This document shows, piece by piece, positions 21,455 through 32,076 of a stretch of 56,466 nt of DNA (positions are counted from its first letter, which is position 1; each line of letters begins with the position of its first letter). The position numbers and the translations under genes were made by a program. This stretch comes from an uncultured Nitrososphaeria archaeon (GTDB lineage: Archaea; Thermoproteota; Nitrososphaeria_A; Caldarchaeales; Wolframiiraptoraceae): the NCBI GenBank assembly GCA_964637915.1, contig CAZWXN010000002.1, positions 1 to 56,466 of the forward strand, given 5' to 3'. A model generated the notes under the pieces. The model was not told the DNA's origin and did no database searches. It saw only the letters and a list, made by a program, of their open reading frames with translations.

Positions 21455-22555
21455 ATGAGTCCAACTGATATCCTCCAGCTCCTGCAAAGGCTCGAGGTCC
21501 TGATAATTATAGCGGCATCCATAGCGGTGATCATAACTGTGATCATAATGTTGAGGAAGAGGGGGAGGGGTGAAAAGAGGTCGAGCGCCTTGGAGGGGCT
21601 GGATTCTATTAAGGTGATCTCGGGACTCGAGGAGGCCGTGGGAGAAGAGAAGCCGGCGCTCACAGAGAAGGGTGCGGGGGAACTCTCCGAGGAGGAGCTT
21701 TCTAAGCTCGAGGCAAGAGTCATAGAATCTCTGATGATTAGGGGTGCTCTTAGGCCCCTCCCAATCCCTGGCAGCAAGGAGGGTGGTCATTACCCGGAGC
21801 TCGCAGGAGCCTCAGAGAGGGATGCACAGCGCGTGATCAGGGGGCTTATCGAGAAGGGCTTGGTAATTGAGGCTGAGAGGGAATTCTCGGCAGTCGCCTG
21901 CCCGATATGCGGCTCGTGCATGCAAGTAGCATTTATATCATGTAGGAATTGCGGCTCATTCAGGATTGAAGAGACGAGATACTATAGGCATACATGCGGC
22001 TACATTGGGCCCGAGTCAAGCTTCAAGACCAAGCTCGGGTTCATCTGCCCACACTGCGGGGGGACAGAGAACATAGAAGCCTATTATAGGAGGTATCGGT
22101 GCCCTGATTGTGGTGCCGAGTTCGAGGAGCCTAATATCGCGTTCAGGTGCGGGTCATGTGGTTCACTCTATGATGAGCAAACTATGGAGATCAAGCCGTT
22201 CAGGAGGATAGAGTCATCAAGGGAGATGCTGGCCGAGTATGAGAAGATTAGCAACGCCGTCAATAAACAGATCGAGCTCCTGAAGCAGCGGGGATATGAG
22301 GTTGAAGGGCCTGTAAGCCTAGTGGGAGAGTCCGGCGTCATCCACAAGTTCGCTGCGGTTGCCAAGAGGGGTGATGAGACCATAGCAATTATATCATCCT
22401 TCGGCGAGCCCCTGACACAGGTCTTGATAAGGCTCGGCGTGGCTAGAAGCGACCTAAAGCTAGGCAAGATAATTCTCGTGACAAGCAATAGGCCGACCGC
22501 GCCGGAAAGGGAGTTCGCGAGGAGCCTCGGGATAGAGATCGTCGAGGTGGCTTAG
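21455..22555 (+). CDS. uncharacterised N-terminally anchored protein with five CxxC motifs (Zn-ribbon cluster) and an unassigned C-terminal domain
   Basis: 366 aa. TM helix aa 14-33 followed by RKRGRGEKR. A possible wHTH-like segment (SERDAQRVIRGLIEKGLVIEAE). CPIC, CRNC, CPHC, CPDC and CGSC lie between aa 149-235 (21899-22159). The C-terminal ~90 aa are GYEVEGPVSLVGESGVIHKFAAVAKRGDETIAII... It is the last gene of the pilus-like locus (22-nt gap). Confidence 0.6.
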   Translation: MSPTDILQLLQRLEVLIIIAASIAVIITVIIMLRKRGRGEKRSSALEGLDSIKVISGLEEAVGEEKPALTEKGAGELSEEELSKLEARVIESLMIRGALRPLPIPGSKEGGHYPELAGASERDAQRVIRGLIEKGLVIEAEREFSAVACPICGSCMQVAFISCRNCGSFRIEETRYYRHTCGYIGPESSFKTKLGFICPHCGGTENIEAYYRRYRCPDCGAEFEEPNIAFRCGSCGSLYDEQTMEIKPFRRIESSREMLAEYEKISNAVNKQIELLKQRGYEVEGPVSLVGESGVIHKFAAVAKRGDETIAIISSFGEPLTQVLIRLGVARSDLKLGKIILVTSNRPTAPEREFARSLGIEIVEVA

Positions 22556-22556
22556 G

Positions 22557-25109
22557 CTACTGAGCCTCCATCCTCGCAGAGGCCCTGATCCTTCTAATGA
22601 TCATTCTCAGGATCACCGGTATCGCTGTTATGGCTGCCAGCGCTGACACGAGTATTATGAAGCCCTGGAATGGAAGTATGAGGCCGAGGAGGTTTATGGC
22701 CTCAAGCTCTATGATCGCGGTCTCTCCTGGGCGGATGACCTTGCTCATTTTTAGCGGCCCATGCCAGACCTCCAGCTGATACGCGCTGAGATATGGTATC
22801 CCGGAGAATACTGCAACTCCATCAGGGCCCGATCTCCCTTCACCTAGAACTATTCCTGAGACCTGTAGTCTCGCGGATACTCCGGGAAGCGGGGTCCCAA
22901 GCATGTCAACCACCTTAACAGCAACCCCCGTCAGCCTAACCTCAATCTCAACGGGTTCTCCGGCGAATGTAACATTCCCGGAGAATATTGGAACCGTTGT
23001 CCCAGGATAATATATCTTCAGGCTATAGTTCGCGAAAGGCATTAGGCTGAAGACTATCATGCCCTGCTTATCCGTGAGACCTTCACCCTTCAGGCCGGCG
23101 GGGCCTATCAACACGACCCTAGCATTGGAGACTGGCGCGCCGCCGCTCCATAATATCCTAAGCACCATATCCTTCACCGGTAGCTTGATCACATTAATGC
23201 CCGCAAGCTCCTCGATGCTCGTATTCCATGAAAGGAGCATCAGGTTCCGCTCATCCGAGATCATGAGGCTGCATGAGCCGCGTGGAACAAGTTCTATGGT
23301 GATCGAGTCGGATTGTCGCCCTACCTCATGCTTATGGCCGGATGGGTCTATGAGGATCCAGAATGCGGGGAATGGCCGCCCATCCGCTGTCTTGAGCTCG
23401 ATCCTGATATTATACACGTCGGCCGTTATGTTCCAGGATCCGGAGCCTGAGATGGTTATCCGGTCATCATACACTTCGATACCCTGCCACATTATCTTGA
23501 CGCGATACTCTCCTTCTGGGATGCCTGGAAAGCTCACGTATCCCCAGCGATCAGCCCTGGCCTCGATGCCGCCAAGCATCACCGAGGCGTTGCCGAGCTC
23601 AATGCCGTCCTTCGCGCATATATGAAGTGTTACCGAGTGGAGGGGTAGCTGGAGCTCTGAGGGCCTCCCCGGCTGGAAGACCCCTGAAGCCTCGGCGCAT
23701 GTCCTGAGTACAGTGGAGCAGTTTAGCGCATGCACATGATAATCGCCCACTATTATCTGGGTTATGTTCAGAAGCCCTGAGCTCGAGTATAGCCTTGTCT
23801 CAGGCAGCGCTCCACGGGGGTCGAGCACCGTGAAGTTCACGGCTAGTGGTGATCCACCACTATCAACAGCCTGGACGAGCAGATCATCAACCGGGAGAAT
23901 CAGCTTGAGCTTGGGCTCCTTGATCTCCGGCGAGATTGTCGGGTGATATCCGATCCAAACCCATTCATCTAGAAGCTTTACACCCATCCAGTATGCTTGT
24001 AGGGAGTGGTTTCCATTCGGGACCAGCTGATATAATGTTAAGCCGTTTTCAGCAACCACCTCAACTCCGTCCAAGATTATCCTCGCGCCATTCAGCGGCC
24101 TCTCCCTCAAATCAAGCGCCCTAACCTCTACGTTAAAGAGAAGCGTTCTAACACCCTTTGATGCGAGATCATAAGCCGTATGATGGTCTATGTGCACAAG
24201 CGGTGACTCCTGCATGAAGAGGCTGCTATTCCAGTATACTCTCACCTCATAATAATCCTCTTCAAGCCTGTAGATTCTTATAGTCCCATTATCTGGGGTG
24301 ATATGCTCCCTAACATCATAATAGTGCATGAGCCTCCTGATCACGACCTTAGCGCCAGAGATGGGGTTCAAGCCATCATAATCCGTTACCGTGAGGTTAA
24401 AGCTCCTATAGGGCTGGATCTCGAAGGGCCCATGAGTTGGATAAGCCTCGAGGGTGTAATCTATCCACCCGGGATAATGGACCCTCAGATCCATGACGGG
24501 CTTGAGAAACCGCTCTTCCGGGTATATGTCTGGTGGAATGAATACGTTAAACTCGAGCACAATGGATGATCCGTGGCTGCGCCCGTTAAGTATGTAATCT
24601 ATGGGGTTGAAGGCCTTAAGCTCGACATTAGCATCAGCCCTAAACGCCCAATCCCTTCCAGGATGCTTCCTCCAAGGGAACCAGAGCAGGGCATGATAGA
24701 GCTTTATGGACTTTCCTTGACAAGCTTCTTTTATCGTCAACTTCGCATCAAAGTATACCTGGCCGCCAAAGCCATAAGCATTCTTTATCTTGTAATCATA
24801 ATTTTTTATCCAGCCGCCTTCCATCATCTCCTGAGCCCTATTCAAGATAAGCTCAAGATCCTGCTCAGGGATTCCTTTAAACTCCTTTTCAAAGGGTTTA
24901 TCCGAAGGCTGCCTTGAGGAGCAGTCCATATTCGTTATGTTTGCTTTCAGCTTCCCCCACTCCCCCATGTACAATTCTGCTGGGAGGAGCTCGATTGAGA
25001 AGTTCCATATTGGCTGCGCGTTTGACGGTGTTATAGCTAGCTGGAGCGCGGAGAGGAAGGAGGATAATATCATGAGACAGAGGAGGATCGTGGAGATGCT
25101 GGAGCGCAT
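22557..25109 (-). CDS. large cell-surface protein: signal peptide, multiple CarboxypepD_reg/PEGA-like beta-sandwich repeats, C-terminal TM anchor
   Basis: 850 aa. Signal peptide ILLCLMILSSFLSALQLAITPSNA. A recurrent ~80-100-aa module is seen at least 5 times, e.g. GAKVVIRR...DNGTIRIYRLEEDYYEVRVYW, NGARIILDG...NGLTLYQLVPNGNHSLQAYW, NASVMLGG...WGYVSFPGIPEGEYRVKIMW, NARVVLIG...KQGMIVFSLMPFANYSLKIYY and VSARLQVS...DGVAVFSGIPYLSAYQLEVWH. Many N-x-S/T sequons. C-terminal TM helix plus the basic tail RMIIRRIRASAR. Confidence 0.7.
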   Translation of the reverse strand: MRSSISTILLCLMILSSFLSALQLAITPSNAQPIWNFSIELLPAELYMGEWGKLKANITNMDCSSRQPSDKPFEKEFKGIPEQDLELILNRAQEMMEGGWIKNYDYKIKNAYGFGGQVYFDAKLTIKEACQGKSIKLYHALLWFPWRKHPGRDWAFRADANVELKAFNPIDYILNGRSHGSSIVLEFNVFIPPDIYPEERFLKPVMDLRVHYPGWIDYTLEAYPTHGPFEIQPYRSFNLTVTDYDGLNPISGAKVVIRRLMHYYDVREHITPDNGTIRIYRLEEDYYEVRVYWNSSLFMQESPLVHIDHHTAYDLASKGVRTLLFNVEVRALDLRERPLNGARIILDGVEVVAENGLTLYQLVPNGNHSLQAYWMGVKLLDEWVWIGYHPTISPEIKEPKLKLILPVDDLLVQAVDSGGSPLAVNFTVLDPRGALPETRLYSSSGLLNITQIIVGDYHVHALNCSTVLRTCAEASGVFQPGRPSELQLPLHSVTLHICAKDGIELGNASVMLGGIEARADRWGYVSFPGIPEGEYRVKIMWQGIEVYDDRITISGSGSWNITADVYNIRIELKTADGRPFPAFWILIDPSGHKHEVGRQSDSITIELVPRGSCSLMISDERNLMLLSWNTSIEELAGINVIKLPVKDMVLRILWSGGAPVSNARVVLIGPAGLKGEGLTDKQGMIVFSLMPFANYSLKIYYPGTTVPIFSGNVTFAGEPVEIEVRLTGVAVKVVDMLGTPLPGVSARLQVSGIVLGEGRSGPDGVAVFSGIPYLSAYQLEVWHGPLKMSKVIRPGETAIIELEAINLLGLILPFQGFIILVSALAAITAIPVILRMIIRRIRASARMEAQ

Positions 25110-25173
25110 GCCCTTCTAACATGAGTATAGTGGCTGGAGATAAGCTTAGCAGCCCGGGCTTTCTCGAGCAAAT

Positions 25174-25183
25174 CTTATATACC
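25174..25183 (+). promoter_or_regulatory. TATA-like box CTTATATACC with an A-rich BRE-like GCAAAT on its + strand side (possibly bidirectional)
   Basis: This is the only strong TATA-like element in the 335-nt gap between the surface-protein gene (ATG 25109, minus) and the aro operon. It would place a + strand TSS near 25204, ~19 nt before ATG 25223. Confidence 0.35.
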
Positions 25184-25222
25184 ATCTGCGAGACGAATAT
25201 CCAAGCGCTCCAGGGGCGAATA

Positions 25223-25315
25223 ATGATGGACCATGCTGGGCATGCTTGCTTGAGCCGCTTTAACAGCCTCTGGAGCTACTGGTATTTTGGCTTCTATTAT
25301 TTTGCCCTGGCGTAA
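25223..25315 (+). promoter_or_regulatory. candidate leader-peptide ORF rich in Trp/Tyr/Phe codons upstream of the shikimate operon
   Basis: ATG ATG ... TAA encodes MMDHAGHACLSRFNSLWSYWYFGFYYFALA. Codons 25271-25303 read W S Y W Y F G F Y Y F. A weak SD AGGGG (25212-25216) lies 6 nt before the ATG. This is the C-terminal part of track ORF 25121..25315. Confidence 0.35.
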
Positions 25316-25324
25316 GGCCAGGGC
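25304..25324 (+). promoter_or_regulatory. perfect 8-bp GC-rich hairpin with the leader-ORF stop codon in its loop
   Basis: GCCCTGGC (25304-25311), loop GTAAG (25312-25316, containing TAA 25313-25315), GCCAGGGC (25317-25324). Confidence 0.5.
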
Positions 25325-25360
25325 CCCGCGCATGATTCCTTGGTTTTGGAGGTGTTCTAC

Positions 25361-25468
25361 ATGCTTGGGGTCCACTCTATAGATCTTCTGGAGTATCGGT
25401 TTGGGCTTGACACGTCCATAGCTTACATTCTATGGTTTTTGGGAGGTGACAGGTATGGTTTGGGGTAA
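25361..25468 (+). promoter_or_regulatory. second upstream ORF (35 codons) with a consensus SD, overlapping the aroA' start
   Basis: GGAGGTG (25348-25354), 6 nt, then ATG 25361. It encodes MLGVHSIDLLEYRFGLDTSIAYILWFLGGDRYGLG. It reads through the hairpin CCATAG/CTATGG (25416-25421/25430-25435) and T5 (25436-25440), and stops at 25466-25468 in a different frame from aroA'. Confidence 0.25.
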
Positions 25469-26249
25469 GAGGGTTAGGTTGAGTAGGATAATGGAGTCGG
25501 GCAGGATGGTTTGCGTGCCAATGGATCATGGAGTCAGCTCTGGGCCATTGAAGGGCATCGACAGGATAAGGGAGATAATAAGGACGCTGGAGTCTGCTGG
25601 TGTTACCGCCATACTGGTCCATAAGGGGATTATCAAGAGCTTGGATGAGCCCCCGAGGACGGGCTTGATAATGCATGTCTCTGCTAGCACGAGCCTCTCC
25701 ACCTCGCCGAACTGGAAGGTGAGGATCGCATCCGTCGAGGAGGCCATCAGGCTTGGGGCTGACGCCGTCTCAGTCCACATAAATATCGGGAATAGGGATG
25801 AGCAGGATATGCTGAGAAAACTCGGCGCGATCGCTGATGAGTGCGATGCATGGGGAATCCCATTGATAGCAATGATGTATCCGCGTGGTGAGAATATCAA
25901 GGATCCAAATGACCCGCAGGTGATAGCTCATGTTGCGAGGGTTGGCGCGGAGCTCGGCGCTGACATAGTCAAGGTGCCGATGCCATCCTTTAACCCGGAT
26001 GATATTCGAGTGATAACCGAGAGCTGCCCGGTCCCTGTTGTCGCAGCTGGAGGCCCGAAGATGGATGATGACAGGAAGGTTCTAGAGCTCGCGAAAGCCG
26101 TCGTGGATGCTGGTGGAGCCGGGGTTACATTCGGGAGAAACGTCTTCCAGCATGAGAGGCCGAATGCTATCGCCAGAGCGCTTAGGGCCGTCGTGATCGA
26201 GGGCAAGAGCGTCGACGATGCCATGATGATTCTGAGGGAGCGACGATGA
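25455..26249 (+). CDS. aroA': 2-amino-3,7-dideoxy-D-threo-hept-6-ulosonate (ADH) synthase, DhnA-type class I aldolase family
   Basis: Strong resemblance to the MJ0400 family: VPMDHGVSSGPLKGI, VHKG, EEAIRLGADAVSVHINIG, IPLIAMMYPRG, ARVGAELGADIVKV (Schiff-base Lys), VVAAGGPK and GRNVFQH. Start ATG 25455 lies 6 nt after GGAGGTG (GTG 25446 in the track). It is the first gene of the aro operon. Confidence 0.85.
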   Translation: MVWGKRVRLSRIMESGRMVCVPMDHGVSSGPLKGIDRIREIIRTLESAGVTAILVHKGIIKSLDEPPRTGLIMHVSASTSLSTSPNWKVRIASVEEAIRLGADAVSVHINIGNRDEQDMLRKLGAIADECDAWGIPLIAMMYPRGENIKDPNDPQVIAHVARVGAELGADIVKVPMPSFNPDDIRVITESCPVPVVAAGGPKMDDDRKVLELAKAVVDAGGAGVTFGRNVFQHERPNAIARALRAVVIEGKSVDDAMMILRERR

Positions 26250-27280
26250 GGAAGGAGATAATCATCGCGCTATCCAAGCCTGATGAAAGGATCCTCGAGA
26301 GGGCGATTGCGAGAGGCATTAAGGCGGTCTACATTGATCCTGAAAAGATGCCTGAGAGGTTTCGCGGCAAGGTCGAGGTCTATCATGAGTCCGAGTCGGC
26401 CGACTGGAGGATTGTCAGGGACTTGTCAAGCATCTCGGAGAATGTTGTTCCCGAGATGGTACTTAGGAGTCCTGACGATTATGAGAGGATAATCGCGGCG
26501 GCGAGAATGGGTGCCAAGAGCATTATAGTAAGGGCTGAGGATCTGAGGATAATAGCGCTCGAGAACCTGATAACTGACTTGGCGCCGCTGGGGACGAGGA
26601 TTATCGCGGCTGCGTCGCCGCTTGAGGTCGAGACGCTCTCCGGAGTTCTCGAGAAGGGTGTTGATGGCATCATAGTCCCCGTTAACAGTCCGGACGAGGT
26701 TGATCTCGTGGTAGATCAGCTCTCAGCCCCCAGCAGGCTCGAGCTGGGTGAGGCGGAGGTCGTCGAGGTCAGGGATGTTGGGCTGGGTGAGAGGGCATGC
26801 ATAGATACGACGTCAATTCTCAGCGCTGGCGAGGGCATGCTTGTCGGGAGCACGTCAAGCCTGCTAGCCCTCATACATAATGAGAGTCCGGGATCCGCGC
26901 TCACGGCTCCGAGGCCCTTCAGGGTTAATGCTGGTGCGATTCACTCGTATACGCTGGTGCCCGACGGCTCCACCAAGTATCTCTCGGAGCTGAGAGCTGG
27001 CGATAGGGTCCTCATAGTCTCCAAGAGGGGTGCTAGGGTCGTGTCTGTAGGAAGGGTGAAGATCGAGCGGAGGCCGCTACGGCTCATCAGGATCAGGATG
27101 GGAGATGTTGAGGGCTCCGTGATAATCCAGAACGCTGAGACGATAATGCTCCTCGCGCCCGATGAGTCGCTTATACCCACGACCGAGATCAAACCGGGCG
27201 ACAGGATCCTCGCGCATACACCGAGGGCCAAGGCGAGACACTTCGGGAGAGCTGTGGACGAGTTCATAATCGAGAGGTGA
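26246..27280 (+). CDS. aroB': 3-dehydroquinate synthase II (archaeal, MJ1249-type)
   Basis: EKGVDGIIVPV, ACIDTTSIL..GEGMLVGS, RPFRVNAGAIHSY, TKYLSELRAGDRVLIV, GRVKIERRPL, IIQNAETI and ARHFG closely follow the MJ1249 family. ATGA start/stop overlap with aroA'. Confidence 0.85.
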   Translation: MRKEIIIALSKPDERILERAIARGIKAVYIDPEKMPERFRGKVEVYHESESADWRIVRDLSSISENVVPEMVLRSPDDYERIIAAARMGAKSIIVRAEDLRIIALENLITDLAPLGTRIIAAASPLEVETLSGVLEKGVDGIIVPVNSPDEVDLVVDQLSAPSRLELGEAEVVEVRDVGLGERACIDTTSILSAGEGMLVGSTSSLLALIHNESPGSALTAPRPFRVNAGAIHSYTLVPDGSTKYLSELRAGDRVLIVSKRGARVVSVGRVKIERRPLRLIRIRMGDVEGSVIIQNAETIMLLAPDESLIPTTEIKPGDRILAHTPRAKARHFGRAVDEFIIER

Positions 27281-27287
27281 CCAATTA

Positions 27288-27971
27288 TTGAGGCCGCTGA
27301 TATGCGTCAGCATCATGGGTAGGGATGAGGCTGAGCTTGAGAGGAAGATGGAGCGGGCGCTGAGCCTCGGCGGAGACCTTGTTGAGCTCAGGTTAGATTT
27401 TCTCCATGACCTCGATGTCAGCCGCCTGGAAAACATTGTCTCGAGCTTTATGGACAAGGTCATCATAACGCTTAGGCCGAGCTGGGAGGGAGGCCACTAT
27501 CATGGAGGCGAGGAGAAAAGGATCGAACTATTGAAAATGTTATCCGACCTGAAGCCCGCCTACATGGATCTCGAGCTCGCGGCAAGAAACATCGCTGAAA
27601 TCTCCAAGGAGCTTAGGAGAAAGTCGCGTCTCATAATATCTTTTCATGATTTCTCGGGAACGCCCCCTGAGGAGGAGCTGGCATCACGAGCCTTGGAGGC
27701 CCTAAGATATGGTGACATCGCGAAGATCGTGACTCTCTCAAGGGGAATGGATGATAATCTCGGGATTCTGCGGCTTTACCGGCTGGATGGTATACCGGCT
27801 AAGAGGCTGATAGCATTCGCCATGGGCGAGGCTGGAGTGGCGACGAGAATCCTTGCGCCCCTCCTAGGGTCGCCGATAGTCTATTCATGTTTCCCGGGCG
27901 AGGAGGTTGCTCCGGGCCAGTTGAACATAATCCATTTTAAGAGGATCTTGGAGCTGGTGATGCCGCGTTGA
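27288..27971 (+). CDS. aroD: 3-dehydroquinate dehydratase, type I
   Basis: ICVSI.G...E......A...G.DLVELRLDFL, ITLRPSWEGG and ISFHDFSGTP are typical of type I DHQase. Confidence 0.85.
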   Translation: MRPLICVSIMGRDEAELERKMERALSLGGDLVELRLDFLHDLDVSRLENIVSSFMDKVIITLRPSWEGGHYHGGEEKRIELLKMLSDLKPAYMDLELAARNIAEISKELRRKSRLIISFHDFSGTPPEEELASRALEALRYGDIAKIVTLSRGMDDNLGILRLYRLDGIPAKRLIAFAMGEAGVATRILAPLLGSPIVYSCFPGEEVAPGQLNIIHFKRILELVMPR

Positions 27972-28831
27972 TCAATGCCTCGACGAGGCTCTGCTGTCTT
28001 ATAGGGCATCCGGTCGGCCACTCGGTCTCGCCCCAGATGCATAATGCCGCCTTTAGGACTCTTGGGCTAAACTATGTCTACCTCGCGTTCGATGTCTCGC
28101 CGGAGATGCTAGCTGATGCCGTGGCAGGGTTAAGGGCTCTCGGCGCCGCCGGCTTCAACGTCACGATACCCCATAAGGTGGCGGTGATGAGGCTGCTCGA
28201 CGAGCTCGATCGCTCGGCAGAGAGGACGGGCGCGGTAAACACCGTCGTGAATCATCATGGAATCTTAAGGGGCTATAATACTGATCTTCATGGTATTCGG
28301 AGGGCGCTGGAGGGCCGGAGCCTCCCCATCTCGATGCCAGCCCTCGTGATTGGCGCTGGAGGCGCTGCAAGAGCCGCAGTGGCCGCTCTCATAGACCTCG
28401 GCTTCCGGAGAATCCTTATCGCTAATAGGACTATTGAGAGGGGCTTGGCCCTGGCTGCGGTTGCACGCTCCTTTGGAGCCTCGGCGGAGGTCTTGGATCT
28501 CGATGAGGGTAGGCGGAGGGCAGTTGAATGTGGGGTTGTGGTGAATGCGACCCCTGTCGGCATGTATCCGGATACTAGCGCCACGCTAATCGTGGCCGAG
28601 GAGATGCGGAGAGGTATTATAGTCCTCGACCTCGTGTATAATCCTCCTAAGACTAGGCTCCTGGAGGAGGCGGAAATAGCTGGAGCGGTTCCTATCTCCG
28701 GCCTCGATGTCCTAGTTTATCAGGGGGCTGAGGCTTTCAGGCTCTGGACCGGTGTGGATCCGCCGATCGAGGTCATGAGAAGGGCTGCGATCGAGGCACT
28801 GGAGGGGTATCGGGGGGATGAGGGGCGCTAG
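27968..28831 (+). CDS. aroE: shikimate dehydrogenase
   Basis: IGHPVGHSVSPQMHNAAF, GFNVTIPHK, GAVNTV, GYNTDLHG, VIGAGGAARA, NRT and NATPVGM motifs. TTGA start/stop overlap with aroD. Confidence 0.9.
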   Translation: MINASTRLCCLIGHPVGHSVSPQMHNAAFRTLGLNYVYLAFDVSPEMLADAVAGLRALGAAGFNVTIPHKVAVMRLLDELDRSAERTGAVNTVVNHHGILRGYNTDLHGIRRALEGRSLPISMPALVIGAGGAARAAVAALIDLGFRRILIANRTIERGLALAAVARSFGASAEVLDLDEGRRRAVECGVVVNATPVGMYPDTSATLIVAEEMRRGIIVLDLVYNPPKTRLLEEAEIAGAVPISGLDVLVYQGAEAFRLWTGVDPPIEVMRRAAIEALEGYRGDEGR

Positions 28832-29681
28832 GGCAGTGGTTCATGGCGCGGTGAGTATCCTAAATGCCATACCAACATGGATTGGAGGAGCCTTGGGAGT
28901 GGATCTTTGGACCGAGGCGGAGGCCTGGATTAGTGATGATCCTGGGAGGATTGAGGCGGAGATACCGGGTGGGGAGGATCCAAGCCTCGTGATCGAGACC
29001 GCGAGGACTGTCCTCCAGCGGGCCGGGAGAGGCGATCTAGGCCTCCGGGTGAGGACTAGGTCGAATATCCCGATAGGGAGGGGGCTTAAGAGCTCGAGCG
29101 CCGCCTCAGATGCCGTGGCCCTAGCAGTTGCGAGGCTCGTTGGCCTTGAATGCGATGGAGAGGAGGTGGTGAGGCTTGCTGTCGAGGCCTCGATCAAGGC
29201 GGGCGTCACGATCACCGGAGCATATGATGATGCCTACACATGCTATTATGGTGGGATAAATATCACGGATAACAGGTCGAGGAAGGTTCTGTTGAGGAGG
29301 ATGGCGCCGGAGGACTTGGTCGTGGTAATATCCGTGCCCGAGAAGAAGATCTATACTAGGTCTGTGGATGTTGGGAGGCTTAGTGCTTTTAGGGAGGTTT
29401 GTCTTAAGGCGGCGAGGCTCGCGCTCCAGGAAAAATTCTGGGATGCAATGATCTTGAATGGGCTGGCGATCGCCTCGGCCCTAGACCTAGATCCAACGCC
29501 CATCCTCGATGCGCTTAGGGCTGGGGCCATAGCCGCTGGGGTTTCCGGAACCGGGCCCGCAATAGCAGCAATCACCCCGCCCAAGAGGGTTGATGATATT
29601 CGAAAGGCCTTGAGGGATTATGGGGATCTTCTCATATGTGGGGTGAATAATTTCGAGGCGAGCTGGGAGGTGTCTGGATGA
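28818..29681 (+). CDS. aroK: shikimate kinase, archaeal GHMP-kinase type
   Basis: It has the GHMP motif IPIGRGLKSSSAASDAVALA, is ~287 aa long, and sits between aroE and aroA. Archaeal shikimate kinases are known to belong to the GHMP superfamily. Confidence 0.8.
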   Translation: MRGARAVVHGAVSILNAIPTWIGGALGVDLWTEAEAWISDDPGRIEAEIPGGEDPSLVIETARTVLQRAGRGDLGLRVRTRSNIPIGRGLKSSSAASDAVALAVARLVGLECDGEEVVRLAVEASIKAGVTITGAYDDAYTCYYGGINITDNRSRKVLLRRMAPEDLVVVISVPEKKIYTRSVDVGRLSAFREVCLKAARLALQEKFWDAMILNGLAIASALDLDPTPILDALRAGAIAAGVSGTGPAIAAITPPKRVDDIRKALRDYGDLLICGVNNFEASWEVSG

Positions 29682-30973
29682 GCAGGATGATACTCGTGAG
29701 GCCGTCGGTGCTCAGGGGCGTGGCTGAGGCTCCGCCGAGCAAATCCTATACGCATCGGGCTTACGCGGCCGCCCTCCTCTCCGATGGCGTCAGCGGGATC
29801 ATCAGTCCTCTCAAATCCCGAGATACAGATGCGACTAGGAGAGCCTGTATTCACTTGGGCGCGGAGATCGAGGAGGAAGAGAACCATGTCCTAGTTAGGG
29901 GTGGAAAATTTAGGACTCCCGATAATGTTATTGATGTTGAGAATTCTGGAACCACTCTCAGGTTCTTCACGGCAATCTCGGCTCATGCTCCTGACGGCTA
30001 CGTGATCTTGACTGGGGATGACTCGATTAGGAGGAGGCCTATGGAGCCTCTCCTAAAGGCTCTTAGGATGCTTGGTGTCGAGTGCTGGTCGAGCAAGCTG
30101 GATGGGACGGCGCCGATAATAGTTAGGGGCGGTGGGATAGAAGGCGGCGAGGCTAGAATAGAGGGTGGGATCTCATCTCAGTTCATCTCAGCCCTAATCT
30201 ACGCGTCGACTAAGTCTAGGAAAGGTGCGAGGATAATTGTCGAAGGCGAGATGGTCTCGCGACCATACATCGACGCGAGCCTAGCTGTTCTCGCGAGATT
30301 CGGGTTCCGCGTGGAGCGCGAGGGATACTGCTTCTTCGAGGTTGAGGGCGGGCAGCATGGGATGGCATGCGAGTTCATGGTTCCGGGGGACTTTGGCTCA
30401 GCCGCCTTCCTAATGGCAGGGGCATGCCTGACAGGTGGAGACATAGTCGTGAGAAACCTTAGCTTGGATCTTCCGCAGGCCGACGCCGCGATAATAAATT
30501 TCCTGAGGATGCTTGGATGCCGCGTGGAGATAATGGAGAATGCTGTTAGAGTTTATCGCGCTGGGAAAGCATGTGGAGGAGAATTTGATCTAAGGGATTC
30601 GCCGGATCTCCTCCCGATACTCGCCTGCATCGCTGCCAAGTGCTCGGAGGAAGTGGTCTTGAGAGGCGCCGCTCATGCGAGGTTCAAGGAGAGTGATAGG
30701 ATCATGGTCATGGCGCATGAGCTCACCAAGCTCGGCATCGACGCTGAGCCCCTCCCAGATGGCTTGAGAATACGCGGGAGGGATAGTATCGAGGGGGGAT
30801 GTATATTGGATCCCCATGGTGATCATAGGGTATTCATGGCTCTCACGATGCTCGCGGCCTCTACTGAGAGGGGGTGCATCGTGAAGGATCTGGAGGTTGC
30901 TGAGGTCTCATATCCCCAGTTCCTCGAGCATGCGATTGGTCTAGGATTGAATGTAGAGGTGCTTGAGGGATGA
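29678..30973 (+). CDS. aroA: 3-phosphoshikimate 1-carboxyvinyltransferase (EPSP synthase)
   Basis: PPSKSYTHRA, NSGTTLRF, LTGDDSIRRRPM, ISSQFISAL, PGDFGSAAF and KESDRI motifs. ATGA overlap with aroK. Confidence 0.9.
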   Translation: MSRMILVRPSVLRGVAEAPPSKSYTHRAYAAALLSDGVSGIISPLKSRDTDATRRACIHLGAEIEEEENHVLVRGGKFRTPDNVIDVENSGTTLRFFTAISAHAPDGYVILTGDDSIRRRPMEPLLKALRMLGVECWSSKLDGTAPIIVRGGGIEGGEARIEGGISSQFISALIYASTKSRKGARIIVEGEMVSRPYIDASLAVLARFGFRVEREGYCFFEVEGGQHGMACEFMVPGDFGSAAFLMAGACLTGGDIVVRNLSLDLPQADAAIINFLRMLGCRVEIMENAVRVYRAGKACGGEFDLRDSPDLLPILACIAAKCSEEVVLRGAAHARFKESDRIMVMAHELTKLGIDAEPLPDGLRIRGRDSIEGGCILDPHGDHRVFMALTMLAASTERGCIVKDLEVAEVSYPQFLEHAIGLGLNVEVLEG

Positions 30974-32076
30974 GGGGCAATATTATCGGCGAGAGGTTCA
31001 TAGTCCTGAGCTTCGGCGAGAGCCATGGAAGATGTGTTGGAGCTGTTGTTGATGGCTGCCCCGCTGGCCTAGCCCTCCGGGAGGAGGATATTCAACGTGA
31101 GCTGGATTTGAGGAGGCCCTCGAGCCCGCTTATCTCGACCGAGAGGAGGGAGGAGGACGTTGTCGAGATACTTTCAGGAGTCTTCGAGGGGTATACGACT
31201 GGTGCGCCGATATGCATGCTTACCTGGAATAGGGATGTTAGGAGCGAGGACTACGCGGAGATCAGGTATAAGCCTAGGCCGGGCCACGCCGACTATTATG
31301 CCCATGTCAAGTATGGAGGCTTCAATGATTATCGTGGCGGCGGCAGGTTCTCGGGAAGGATAACCGCCGGATTCGTGATGGCTGGAGCCGTCGCGAAGAA
31401 GCTCCTGAGTGATGTCCTAGGCATCAGGATCATCGGATACTCGCTTGAGATTGGTGGGGTGAGGGCTGGCGAGTTCACTTTAGAGGATGCTGAGAGGAAC
31501 AGGTATGAGAATGATGTTAGGGCGCCGACCCCAGAGGCTGCTGAGAGGATGATGGAGAGGATTCTGGAGGCGAGGGAGAGGGGGGATAGCGTCGGCGGGA
31601 TAGTGGAATGCATAGCCGTGAATGTTCCTATAGGGTTGGGTGAGCCGGTATTCGATGCCTTAGACGCTGATCTCGCGAAAGCCATGATGGCGATTCCCGG
31701 GGCGAAGGGGGTTGAGTTTGGCGCTGGATTCGCCGCTGCTAGGATGGCCGGCTCACAGCACAACGATTTATTAACCGTGAGGGGTGGCAGGATAATCTCG
31801 GAGAAGAATGATGCTGGAGGAGTGATCGGGGGCCTCTCGACAGGCATGCCGATAATCGTCAGGGTTGCTTTCAAGCCGACGAGCTCTATACCCTTGGAGC
31901 AGAAGACTGTTGATCTTAGGGATCTCAGCGAGGCGAGGCTGAGGATACGCGGCAGGCATGATCCATGCATCGTCCCAAGGGCGGTGGTGGTCGTCGAGGC
32001 GATGATGGCGATAGTGCTTGCCGATCATGCGATTAGAGCCGGATTCATACCACCAGTCCTCAGGCGTGGGGATTAA
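30970..32076 (+). CDS. aroC: chorismate synthase
   Basis: SFGESHG, GCPAG, RRPS..., RPGHADY, GGGRFSGR, GDSVGG and RHDPC motifs. ATGA overlap with aroA. Confidence 0.9.
   Translation: MRGNIIGERFIVLSFGESHGRCVGAVVDGCPAGLALREEDIQRELDLRRPSSPLISTERREEDVVEILSGVFEGYTTGAPICMLTWNRDVRSEDYAEIRYKPRPGHADYYAHVKYGGFNDYRGGGRFSGRITAGFVMAGAVAKKLLSDVLGIRIIGYSLEIGGVRAGEFTLEDAERNRYENDVRAPTPEAAERMMERILEARERGDSVGGIVECIAVNVPIGLGEPVFDALDADLAKAMMAIPGAKGVEFGAGFAAARMAGSQHNDLLTVRGGRIISEKNDAGGVIGGLSTGMPIIVRVAFKPTSSIPLEQKTVDLRDLSEARLRIRGRHDPCIVPRAVVVVEAMMAIVLADHAIRAGFIPPVLRRGD

Follow-up and report, generated by a model that had tools for sequence, protein, structure and literature searches.

The aro operon and the leader region that precedes it were analyzed in a stretch of 56,466 nucleotides (nt) of DNA (contig CAZWXN010000002.1; hereafter the window), which derives from Wolframiiraptor (Caldarchaeales), a hot-spring archaeon. 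The AroA' protein of the window shares 96% identity with its counterpart in Candidatus Wolframiiraptor gerlachensis and 92% with that in W. sinensis, two members of the Caldarchaeales ('Aigarchaeota'), and Wolframiiraptor-type organisms inhabit environments of about 80 °C or hotter (PMC9246946). Pfam analysis identified the seven open reading frames (ORFs) of the operon as encoding, in this order, ADH synthase (AroA', a DeoC-type aldolase), DHQ synthase II, DHQ dehydratase, shikimate dehydrogenase, a GHMP-type shikimate kinase, EPSP synthase and chorismate synthase. The intergenic gap ahead of them (25110-25454) was measured at 345 nt and is the longest in the window, as had been claimed in an earlier reading of this DNA (the original prediction); because the upstream gene (22557-25109) lies on the opposite strand, the gap is a divergent intergenic region. 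Within it lie a short upstream ORF (uORF1) rich in codons for tryptophan, tyrosine and phenylalanine and two helices, P1 and P2, that involve uORF1, its Shine-Dalgarno (SD) sequence and its stop codon. The features concerned are as follows.

25168-25183, + strand: promoter of the aro leader, BRE (TFB-recognition element) and TATA box, GCAAAT CTTATATACC, in a conserved block
25207-25217, + strand: 5' arm of P1 (GCTCCAGGGGC), which holds the SD-like GGGG/GAGG of uORF1 and pairs with 25266-25276
25223-25315, + strand: uORF1, leader peptide MMDHAGHACLSRFNSLWSYWYFGFYYFALA followed by the stop, open in 20/20 distinct sequences
25266-25276, + strand: 3' arm of P1 (GCCTCTGGAGC), codons (S)-L-W-S of uORF1, pairs with 25207-25217
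25271-25303, + strand: aromatic run W-S-Y-W-Y-F-G-F-Y-Y-F, 9/11 codons aromatic, ending directly at P2
25304-25324, + strand: hairpin P2, 5' arm GCCCTGGC (codons A-L-A), loop GTAAG, 3' arm GCCAGGGC
25441-25457, + strand: SD of aroA' (GGGAGGTG) and its start codon, ATG 25455, read from the sequence
25455-32076, + strand: aro operon, 7 ORFs

The BRE-like element and TATA-like box that had been proposed ahead of the leader are present at 25168-25183, and the promoter block (AAAnTTTAATTAC / CTTATATAC) is kept 25 nt upstream of P1 in 13 aligned relatives. From the usual archaeal spacing between TATA box and transcription start site (TSS), we infer a start at approximately 25204-25206, which would place the start of uORF1 about 20 nt past the TSS.

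Conservation of uORF1 and of helices P1 and P2

uORF1 comprises 30 codons from the ATG at 25223 to the TAA at 25313-25315. The AGGGG (25212-25216), the ATGATG at 25223 and the 30-codon ORF all lie where the original prediction had placed them, ATG 25223/25226 sitting 6-9 nt past the GGGG, with the correction that the start kept among relatives in the alignment is the second ATG (25226), from which 29 codons remain. The predicted run of Trp, Tyr and Phe codons also has the right coordinates, and nine of its 11 codons are indeed aromatic. The original prediction had cautioned that an AT-rich promoter could mimic such a run and that an antisense ORF covers the same DNA. Aromatic codons make up 6.3% of the codon positions across the six frames of the window, on which basis 9e-5 windows of 11 codons with at least nine aromatic ones are expected by chance, and the run is the sole 11-codon window with at least seven in the six frames of the 56 kb. 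It is therefore beyond chance and no artefact of composition. The antisense ORF of 66 codons over uORF1 is not conserved, stop codons being present in all three antisense frames in many relatives, and a longer + strand ORF of 64 codons, which begins at 25121 upstream of the TATA box, is not conserved either. No other leader peptides were found in the remaining intergenic gaps of the window.

DNA around AroA' homologues was fetched from 80 species-representative genomes, and the L-numbers used below denote individual loci. The leader was found directly upstream of aroA' in five relatives (L001, L002, L003, L005 and L008) and, in seven others (L004, L006, L007, L009-L011 and L013), about 2.3 kb upstream of aroA', before two extra genes. 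A metagenome scan with a leader-derived pattern yielded seven more distinct sequences, which represent six new types (L088 and L094 are near-identical), as well as two chance matches. A covariance model built from 19 leader sequences recovered all 19 at 79-103 bits, and a search of 94 loci with this model returned no members besides those already recognised.

The check proposed in the original prediction, conservation of the W/Y/F run upstream of aroA' orthologues, was carried out on this collection, and the aromatic uORF is kept in 20 distinct sequences, from genomes and metagenomes and from different species, with its frame uninterrupted in every one. Its length takes nine values (23-30 and 32 codons) and differs by whole codons only; its start is ATG, GTG or TTG, located 5-10 nt downstream of GAGG or GGGG in 20/20. 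All three kinds of aromatic codon occur in each member (W 1-2, Y 2-5 and F 4-6, 8-11 in total) and are concentrated in the last 14 codons. The N-terminal half has diverged almost fully, as seen in MMDHAGHACLSRFNS, MKEQKHTVPKGFFG, MNKRNKNLRTAAASR, MAGFSVTGWR and MELTKNACIV, and TTT/TTC and TAT/TAC are swapped at several positions among members. The last two codons before P2, TAT TTT, are invariant in all members, even though Phe is less often encoded by TTT in this genome (7 vs 23 per 1000). The peptide has a basic N-terminus and a hydrophobic C-terminus, of which W-S-[YF]-x-Y-F-[AT]-[LP]-A-stop is strongly kept within the Wolframiiraptor/Geocrenenecus group; the conservation of Y-F-A-L-A-stop within the family of the window is, however, confounded by the P2 stem, and other families share composition only. 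uORF1, the second small ORF described below (uORF2) and the versions of both in relatives had no exact match among 15 billion predicted proteins, and uORF1 is therefore unannotated.

RNAalifold, applied to 13 sequences, predicted exactly two helices, P1 and P2. The claimed 8-bp stem of P2 (25304-25311/25317-25324) with the stop codon TAA inside its 5-nt loop was confirmed, and the helix that had been proposed as a 10-bp competitor of it (25207-25216/25267-25276) exists and is 11 bp long (25207-25217/25266-25276). When the 20 sequences were re-aligned to the covariance model, standard pairs occupied 97.6% of the 380 cells of P1 and P2, vs 32-57% when the partners were slid by 1-3 columns (96.4% for the 11 pairs of P1, whose changes are of G-U type, and 99.4% for P2). 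The covariation score of P1/P2 exceeded those of all 500 shuffles, and double-sided changes were seen in four pairs, three of them among the eight pairs of P2. The conservation of the stop-in-loop hairpin, another proposed check, is thus borne out by compensatory changes (G-C to A-U in L011 and L083, U-A to C-G in L013 and L082, and the terminal G-C to A-U in L083), and P1 is likewise conserved among the 20 sequences; P2 is the better supported of the two.

The interplay of helix and coding is visible at several sites. In L013, the P2 stem is preserved at the price of a Leu-to-Pro change; the loop of P2 takes in the wobble position of the last Ala codon, at which G, A, T and C all occur among members, and synonymous sites within the stem do not vary. 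The loop always contains the stop codon, and TAA, TAG and TGA all occur. Synonymous sites of TGG AGC in the 3' arm of P1 are invariant. One-sided changes in P1 and P2 produce G-U pairs on the + strand, barring nine non-standard cells, eight of which are in P1; read from the opposite strand, or as a palindrome in DNA, the same changes would give A-C mismatches, which assigns P1 and P2 to the RNA of the + strand. The interior of P1 varies in sequence and length among members. For the window, the predicted pair probability of P1 was 0.84-0.98 at 37-80 °C; at 70-85 °C, the range of the organism, the predictions ran from 0.97 to 0.59 for P1 and from 0.57 to 0.86 for P2, so that both stay strongly predicted. 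No Rfam family reached its gathering score in the window, and at E values up to 10 the region 25100-25500 gave one chance match to a long non-coding RNA.

The arms of the two helices resemble each other (CCAG(A/G)GGC vs CCAGGGC and GCCTCTGG vs GCCCTGG), which may reflect an old duplication. This likeness makes the cross-pairings 1:3 and 2:4 possible, but no covariation accompanies them and they were set aside. A further segment at 25384-25398 (CTTCTGGAGTATCGG), within uORF2, is a near-copy of the 3' arm of P1 (CCTCTGGAGCTACTGG) and might pair with the 5' arm of P1; the near-repeat is not kept in L001-L003.

Downstream signals, operon history and leaders of other families

Between P2 and aroA', the following features were recognized.

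25321-25327, + strand: 5' arm of the candidate helix P3 (GGGCCCC), overlapping the 3' arm of P2 by 4 nt, pairs with 25367-25373
25336-25347, + strand: pyrimidine/T-rich block (TTCCTTGGTTTT) between P2 and SD2
25348-25363, + strand: SD2 (GGAGGTG) and start2 (ATG 25361), the ancestral aspartokinase start, aligned with L004-L013 and L083
25361-25468, + strand: uORF2, 35 codons, MLGVHSIDLL...GLG-stop, running through the SD and start of aroA' and ending 14 nt inside
25367-25373, + strand: 3' arm of candidate P3 (GGGGTCC), codons 3-5 of uORF2
25416-25440, + strand: hairpin CCATAG/CTATGG then T5 (terminator scan), within uORF2 and immediately upstream of the SD of aroA'

The two extra genes that separate leader and aroA' in seven relatives were identified by Pfam as encoding an ACT-domain aspartokinase and an aspartate-semialdehyde dehydrogenase (asd), which yield aspartate semialdehyde, the substrate of ADH synthase. 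SD2 and start2 of the window align with the start of this aspartokinase, and in the intermediate L083 the kinase starts with ATG TCT GGG GTT (MSGVIVVKFGGS), like the head of uORF2 in L003, L005 and L081. It follows that the Wolframiiraptor clade lost the aspartokinase and asd of the operon and retains only the SD, start and first codons of the kinase (window 25348-25363). No aspartokinase or asd gene is present elsewhere in the window, and the body of uORF2 has no similarity to either, homology being limited to the SD, the start and the first few codons. Two copies of a module TGG-Tn-GGAGGTG-N6-ATG had been described in the original prediction; their positions (25341-25363 and 25433-25457) were correct, and their interpretation as a duplication was not, the first being the ancestral aspartokinase SD and start. 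Across most Caldarchaeales the aro operon opens with a dedicated aspartokinase (AA_kinase + ACT) and/or asd under an aromatic leader, examples being L004:730-2996, L083:1368-2591 (- strand), L018:1945-2997 and L028:736-1956.

In all sequences 44-50 nt separate the stop of uORF1 from start2, and 22-28 nt separate P2 from SD2. uORF2 is open in 9/9 window-type sequences, with 32-44 codons; the distance from start2 to the start of aroA' is 1 mod 3 in 8/8, although it takes five values (85, 88, 94, 100 and 121), and the stop always falls 14 or 23 nt within aroA'. Since uORF2 is kept open into aroA', selection appears to maintain ribosome traffic from start2 to aroA', and whatever the leader controls would, on the evidence of these reading frames, be relayed to aroA' through start2.

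The T-rich block begins 7-17 nt (mostly 10-14 nt) past P2 in all members, and its position is conserved. The original prediction had also called for conserved T-tracts, which were not found: among 19 sequences the run is T5 in six, T4 in five, T3 in three and T2 in five, so that only 11/19 carry at least T4, and the closest relative, L001, is among those with T2. The hairpin followed by T5 that had been claimed inside uORF2 is present at 25416-25440. It is confined to the genus (window and L001, with a shortened form in L002 and L090; that of W. sinensis is shortened), and nothing else in the leader has the shape of a bacterial-type terminator; ribosomes translating uORF2 would melt this hairpin. 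P2 was not called as a terminator in the scan.

P3 competes with P2 in the predicted ensemble of the window, with probabilities of 0.68 (P3) vs 0.57 (P2) at 70 °C and 0.25 vs 0.81 at 80 °C, P3 falling to 0.25-0.15 at 80-85 °C. It occurs in most window-type relatives, and several aspartokinase-type members pair the 3' arm of P2 with the spacer between SD2 and start2 instead; no pairing was found in L005, L007, L009 and L083. Compared with shuffled targets, pairing of the freed 3' arm of P2 had a mean z of -1.2 and reached p of at most 0.02 in 6/18 members, with nothing in four. No covariation supports P3, which we include only tentatively, as a predicted part of the leader architecture. Members without a T run tend to possess P3, and conversely; in this small sample the alternation hints at two interchangeable outputs.

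Other families of Caldarchaeales possess aromatic leaders that have no nucleotide similarity to that of the window, located at the head of the same operon with a differing first gene (aspartokinase, asd or aroA'). In Calditenuaceae, the leaders MGRVNLLGFAFTAYTYFYFWEG and VVLSSVNAFWFTTYPYFYFGN (each followed by the stop) precede asd-aroA'; the Terraquivivens leader VRDCLFLTTGYSYYRYSETGASL, whose C-terminal end is GYSYYRYSETGASL-stop, precedes aspartokinase; and the leaders of L014 (MSRGRGIGRKSIQLFGWTATYAYFFGPRE, ending in LFGWTATYAYFFGPRE-stop) and L025 (MDSSPTSETKCFFFNFYY, ending in CFFFNFYY-stop) are further cases. Composition is common across families and sequence is common only within a family, as codon-based sensing predicts, and the sharing of composition alone speaks against both a micro-protein with a function of its own and a specific arrest motif. 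A pairing of the uORF's own SD or start region with RNA that coincides with or follows the aromatic codons recurs in every family. SD1 of Calditenuaceae forms 13 bp with the C-rich CCCCCUCCGC segment, which is also able to pair with SD2, and the final codons of the Terraquivivens uORF, together with its stop, have two alternative partners, the 5' end (9 bp) and SD2 of aspartokinase (14-17 bp). A 7-bp stop-in-loop hairpin was seen by eye in 3/5 Calditenuaceae leaders; it was not chosen by RNAalifold and hence is not relied on. The Terraquivivens leader (L028:600-745, L030:597-742 and L032:597-742) is rich in Tyr (GYSYYRY), with the start codon in one hairpin and the Tyr codons in a second, palindromic one (GCTATAGC).

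Candidatus Caldarchaeum (L015-L017, L019, L023, L029 and L031) carries asd-aroA', preceded by a short 5' region that lacks an aromatic uORF; not every member of the order thus has the leader, which these species either lost or never acquired. Ammonia oxidisers have no such leader either; the aromatic mini-ORFs ahead of their aroA' (L043, L073 and L075) turned out to be merely AT-rich TATA regions. In other Nitrososphaeria with aspartokinase as the first gene, a 5' motif GAGGCGAT[CT]GACTTTA occurs about 25 nt past the TATA box (L025:560-720, L033:560-700, L027:1690-1775 and L041:1650-1770), which reads 'EAIDF' in frame, without a conserved canonical start. Among these, L025 and L033 carry aromatic-rich uORFs, the TGA of the L033 uORF overlapping the ATG of the kinase, and a further leader family may be represented here.

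On the other side of the gap, the gene transcribed divergently from the aro leader (22557-25109) encodes a secreted protein of 850 aa composed of CarboxypepD_reg/prealbumin-like repeats, and a conserved GATAAGCTTAG box at approximately 25139-25149 is probably part of its promoter. The product of the adjacent gene (21455-22555) combines a TackOD1 output domain with zinc-ribbon-like motifs.

Proposed ribosome-mediated attenuation and its rivals

The region at approximately 25205-25360 is probably a transcribed leader of the aro operon that acts as a ribosome-mediated attenuator sensing aromatic aminoacyl-tRNA, and the sensor half of this model is well supported. The sensor would be the ribosome translating uORF1. 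When Phe-, Tyr- or Trp-tRNA is scarce, it would halt on the aromatic codons near the end of uORF1 and there occlude the P1 3' arm, the P2 5' arm or both; with ample supply it would reach the stop codon in the loop of P2 and depart, upon which P1 and P2 would close. If the footprint extends about 12 nt upstream and about 15 nt downstream from the P site, a ribosome whose A site holds TAT or TTT would mask the 5' arm of P2 but not its 3' arm, and one paused at an earlier Phe or Trp codon would mask the 3' arm of P1. As closed P1 hides the SD of uORF1, the leader would be read mainly by the first ribosome behind the polymerase. The open or closed helices would set expression from SD2/start2, about 45 nt downstream. 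In the window, start2 would serve as a relay, opening the 35-codon uORF2 that carries ribosomes over the gap into aroA'; in relatives it is where the pathway-specific aspartokinase begins, followed by asd, aroA' and onward.

As to the output step, closed P2 may represent the 'off' state, in which transcription would terminate prematurely in the T-rich block that begins about 11 nt behind it; a ribosome halted on uORF1 would keep this from happening. P2-dependent termination is favoured because it is the only simple scheme with a homeostatic direction, and is put forward tentatively; gating of translation at start2 through the choice between P2 and P3 comes second among the outputs and is somewhat less likely.

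Several observations weigh against attenuation in this form. No conserved antiterminator/terminator pair was found, as RNAalifold and the covariance model give P1 and P2 only. P2 is not directly abutted by a T run, owing to the gap of 7-17 nt to the T-rich block, and the run is weak or absent in 8/19 members, the closest relative included. Archaeal RNA polymerases terminate at oligo-T and are not known to need hairpins. The SD of uORF1 is short (4 nt), and the Trp codon of the family lies within an arm of P1 and may therefore be kept for structure and not for sensing. When the leader was folded at 37 and 70 °C under constraints mimicking a ribosome positioned at Trp, the last Phe or the stop codon, SD2 did not open consistently. 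In many members, the 3' arm of P2, once freed, is able to pair with the region of start2, and the 3' end of the uORF in Terraquivivens pairs with SD2; at equilibrium, these P3-like and Terraquivivens pairings mean that stalling would shut start2, the wrong direction for a biosynthetic operon. Three ways out of this puzzle of sign are conceivable: the pairings could be incidental, first-round folding could be kinetically controlled, or stalling could report an excess, as with an arrest peptide. Of the attenuator proposed originally, conservation of the uORF and the hairpin held up and that of the T runs did not; a bacterial-type terminator read-out is not supported in the form given, and the sensing of tRNA stays an inference.

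These same pairings form the core of the strongest rival, translational attenuation, which has the same sensor and differs only in its output step. Here the position of the ribosome would decide whether the 3' arm of P2 enters P2 or P3, thereby gating start2; in the other families, the anti-SD segment would choose between SD1 and SD2, and uORF2 would relay the outcome to aroA'. In its favour are the competition of P2 and P3 in the ensemble predicted for the window, the predicted pairing of the freed arm with start2 in most members (6/18 beating 98% of shuffles, with the mean z of -1.2 given above), the conservation of uORF2 together with the nucleotide sequence GGGGTCC, the tight spacing from P2 to SD2, and the tendency of members without T runs to possess P3 and conversely. 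The 14-17-bp helix between uORF end and SD2 in Terraquivivens, with the 9-bp helix at the 5' end as its alternative, and the 13-bp pairing of SD1 in Calditenuaceae with a segment able to pair with SD2 point in the same direction. However, P3 is lacking in L005, L007, L009 and L083, has no covariation and is weak at 80-85 °C; SD2 is mostly unpaired without a ribosome; and the sign at equilibrium is wrong, stalling shutting start2, unless folding is kinetically controlled. We regard translational attenuation as unlikely, though a serious contender.

The puzzle of sign would vanish if uORF1 encoded a nascent-chain arrest peptide of the TnaC or SpeFL kind that senses free aromatic amino acids within the tunnel of the ribosome, as stalling would then signal excess and switch the operon off, with start2 shut or the 3' arm freed as predicted. 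The strong conservation of the C-terminal residues within the Wolframiiraptor/Geocrenenecus group would also fit. Yet this conservation is mostly explained by the helices (F/L-W-S being the arm of P1 and A-L-A that of P2), only aromatic composition is kept across families, with neither a motif nor a fixed distance to the stop, which is the signature of codon sensing, and the critical position is occupied by the rare codon TTT. No arrest peptide for Phe or Tyr is known to us, and this explanation is improbable.

A small functional protein, hydrophobic and aromatic and merely co-transcribed with the aro genes, would account for the conserved ORF and for its basic N-terminus and hydrophobic C-terminus. 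Such a micro-protein is very improbable: the N-terminal half is unconstrained, families share composition only, the hydrophobic part is too short for a membrane helix, and the exact look-up among 15 billion predicted proteins gave no annotated homologue. Moreover, uORF1 always lies at the 5' end of the same operon, despite the differing first gene (aspartokinase, asd or aroA'), and its codons are interlocked with two conserved helices, with the stop always in the loop.

Finally, a pure RNA or DNA element with an incidental ORF (a riboswitch-like RNA, hairpins or triplet repeats bound by a regulator protein, or a palindromic operator), suggested by the strong nucleotide-level conservation of P1 and P2, the inverted repeat of P2 and the repeated TTC/TAT triplets, can practically be dismissed in view of the whole-codon length differences, the conserved start and SD, the TTT/TTC and TAT/TAC swaps outside the helices, the aromatic frame common to families without sequence similarity, the high variability between the arms of P1, which is unlike a ligand pocket, the one-sided G-U changes, which speak against a DNA operator, and the lack of any Rfam match.

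Significance and comparison with known systems

Leader-peptide attenuation is a textbook case of the coupling of transcription and translation and is treated as bacterial. Archaea have a eukaryote-like polymerase, terminate independently of hairpins and employ the termination factor FttA/aCPSF1. The original prediction had named no archaeal precedent, and our full-text literature searches agree in that no archaeal leader-peptide attenuator was found described. That uORFs regulate genes in all domains has been stated in general terms in a paper describing a tool (PMC10219788).

On balance we favour, with reasonable though not high confidence, the view that Caldarchaeales use true leader-peptide attenuation, in which an aromatic uORF senses Phe-, Tyr- and Trp-tRNA and sets the aro operon, including aspartokinase and asd where present at its head, and in which different families arrived at the same control through different RNA solutions, with a read-out other than a hairpin-plus-U terminator. 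The candidates for this read-out are termination, either assisted by a hairpin or dependent on a factor, and gating of the next start site. If this is true, it would be the first family of amino-acid-sensing attenuators in the archaeal domain. The comparative evidence across Caldarchaeales makes control of an archaeal polymerase, or of the next start codon, by a ribosome concretely testable, and cultured relatives exist in the W. gerlachensis enrichment (PMC9246946) and the cultivated Calditenuis (PMC12979851). The ancestral operon feeds aspartate semialdehyde into the archaeal shikimate route under one leader, and after the loss of genes the relic start site was, by prediction, reused as a translated bridge.

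Like the bacterial attenuators (E. coli trpL, pheL-pheA, hisL and thrL), the leader of the window has a short ORF near the TSS that is rich in codons for the end products, with the regulatory codons near its 3' end, at the head of a biosynthetic operon. A leader ORF with an SD near the inferred TSS, a cluster of end-product codons and codons that are kept as the peptide drifts were all found. P2 resembles segments 1:2 of the E. coli trp leader, which have the stop codon in the hairpin loop, and in that leader the ribosome-binding site is hidden by a later segment, as P1 would do here. Unlike those systems, the present one has an archaeal host, a TATA/BRE promoter and a Pol II-like polymerase; it has two helices and no conserved antiterminator/terminator pair, P2 lies 7-17 nt (mostly 10-14 nt) from a T-rich block whose T run is not constant, and the peptide mixes all three aromatic amino acids. 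It matches none of the Rfam leader families (Trp_leader, Phe_leader, His_leader and others). Because neither an antiterminator/terminator pair nor a hairpin followed by a U run was found when looked for, the leader is not a member of the bacterial attenuator family.

The aroR-aroF leader of C. glutamicum, reported by Neshat et al. in 2014 and summarized in PMC11802643, is nearest in content. It encodes a leader peptide carrying Phe-Tyr-Phe, on which ribosome stalling reportedly raises transcription; as in the window, mixed aromatic codons there precede the entry enzyme of the shikimate pathway. That system differs in being bacterial, in preceding a DAHP synthase gene and in using an intrinsic terminator. 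The archaeal peptide, by comparison, has 8-11 aromatic codons including Trp and precedes the ADH-synthase route with its feeder genes for aspartokinase and asd.

In translational attenuators (ermC/cat leaders, B. subtilis rtpLP and mycobacterial poly-Cys uORFs, bioRxiv 10.1101/834739), the position of the ribosome selects pairings at the next ribosome-binding site, and the explicit anti-SD segments of the Terraquivivens and Calditenuaceae leaders are of this kind. In the family of the window, unlike the ermC/rtpLP type, SD2 and start2 are mostly unpaired without a ribosome at 70 °C, and predicted stalling does not open SD2 and in several members lowers its accessibility, which is the opposite sign. 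Like uORF1, tnaC and SpeFL are short conserved uORFs that control downstream expression and have an aromatic residue upstream of the stop; they differ in that specific residues lie at a fixed distance from the arrest site, whereas the archaeal families share composition only. The leader does not fit the definition of a riboswitch, as the interior of P1 varies and as it depends on a frame (whole-codon lengths and a conserved start). Among archaea, control of aromatic genes is exemplified by TrpY of Methanothermobacter, a DNA-binding repressor at the promoter. The target of TrpY-type control is the same, aromatic amino-acid biosynthesis, but the element of the window is located in a leader that is predicted to be transcribed, around an ORF predicted to be translated, and it is best read as an archaeal variant of leader-peptide attenuation with a read-out differing from the bacterial one.

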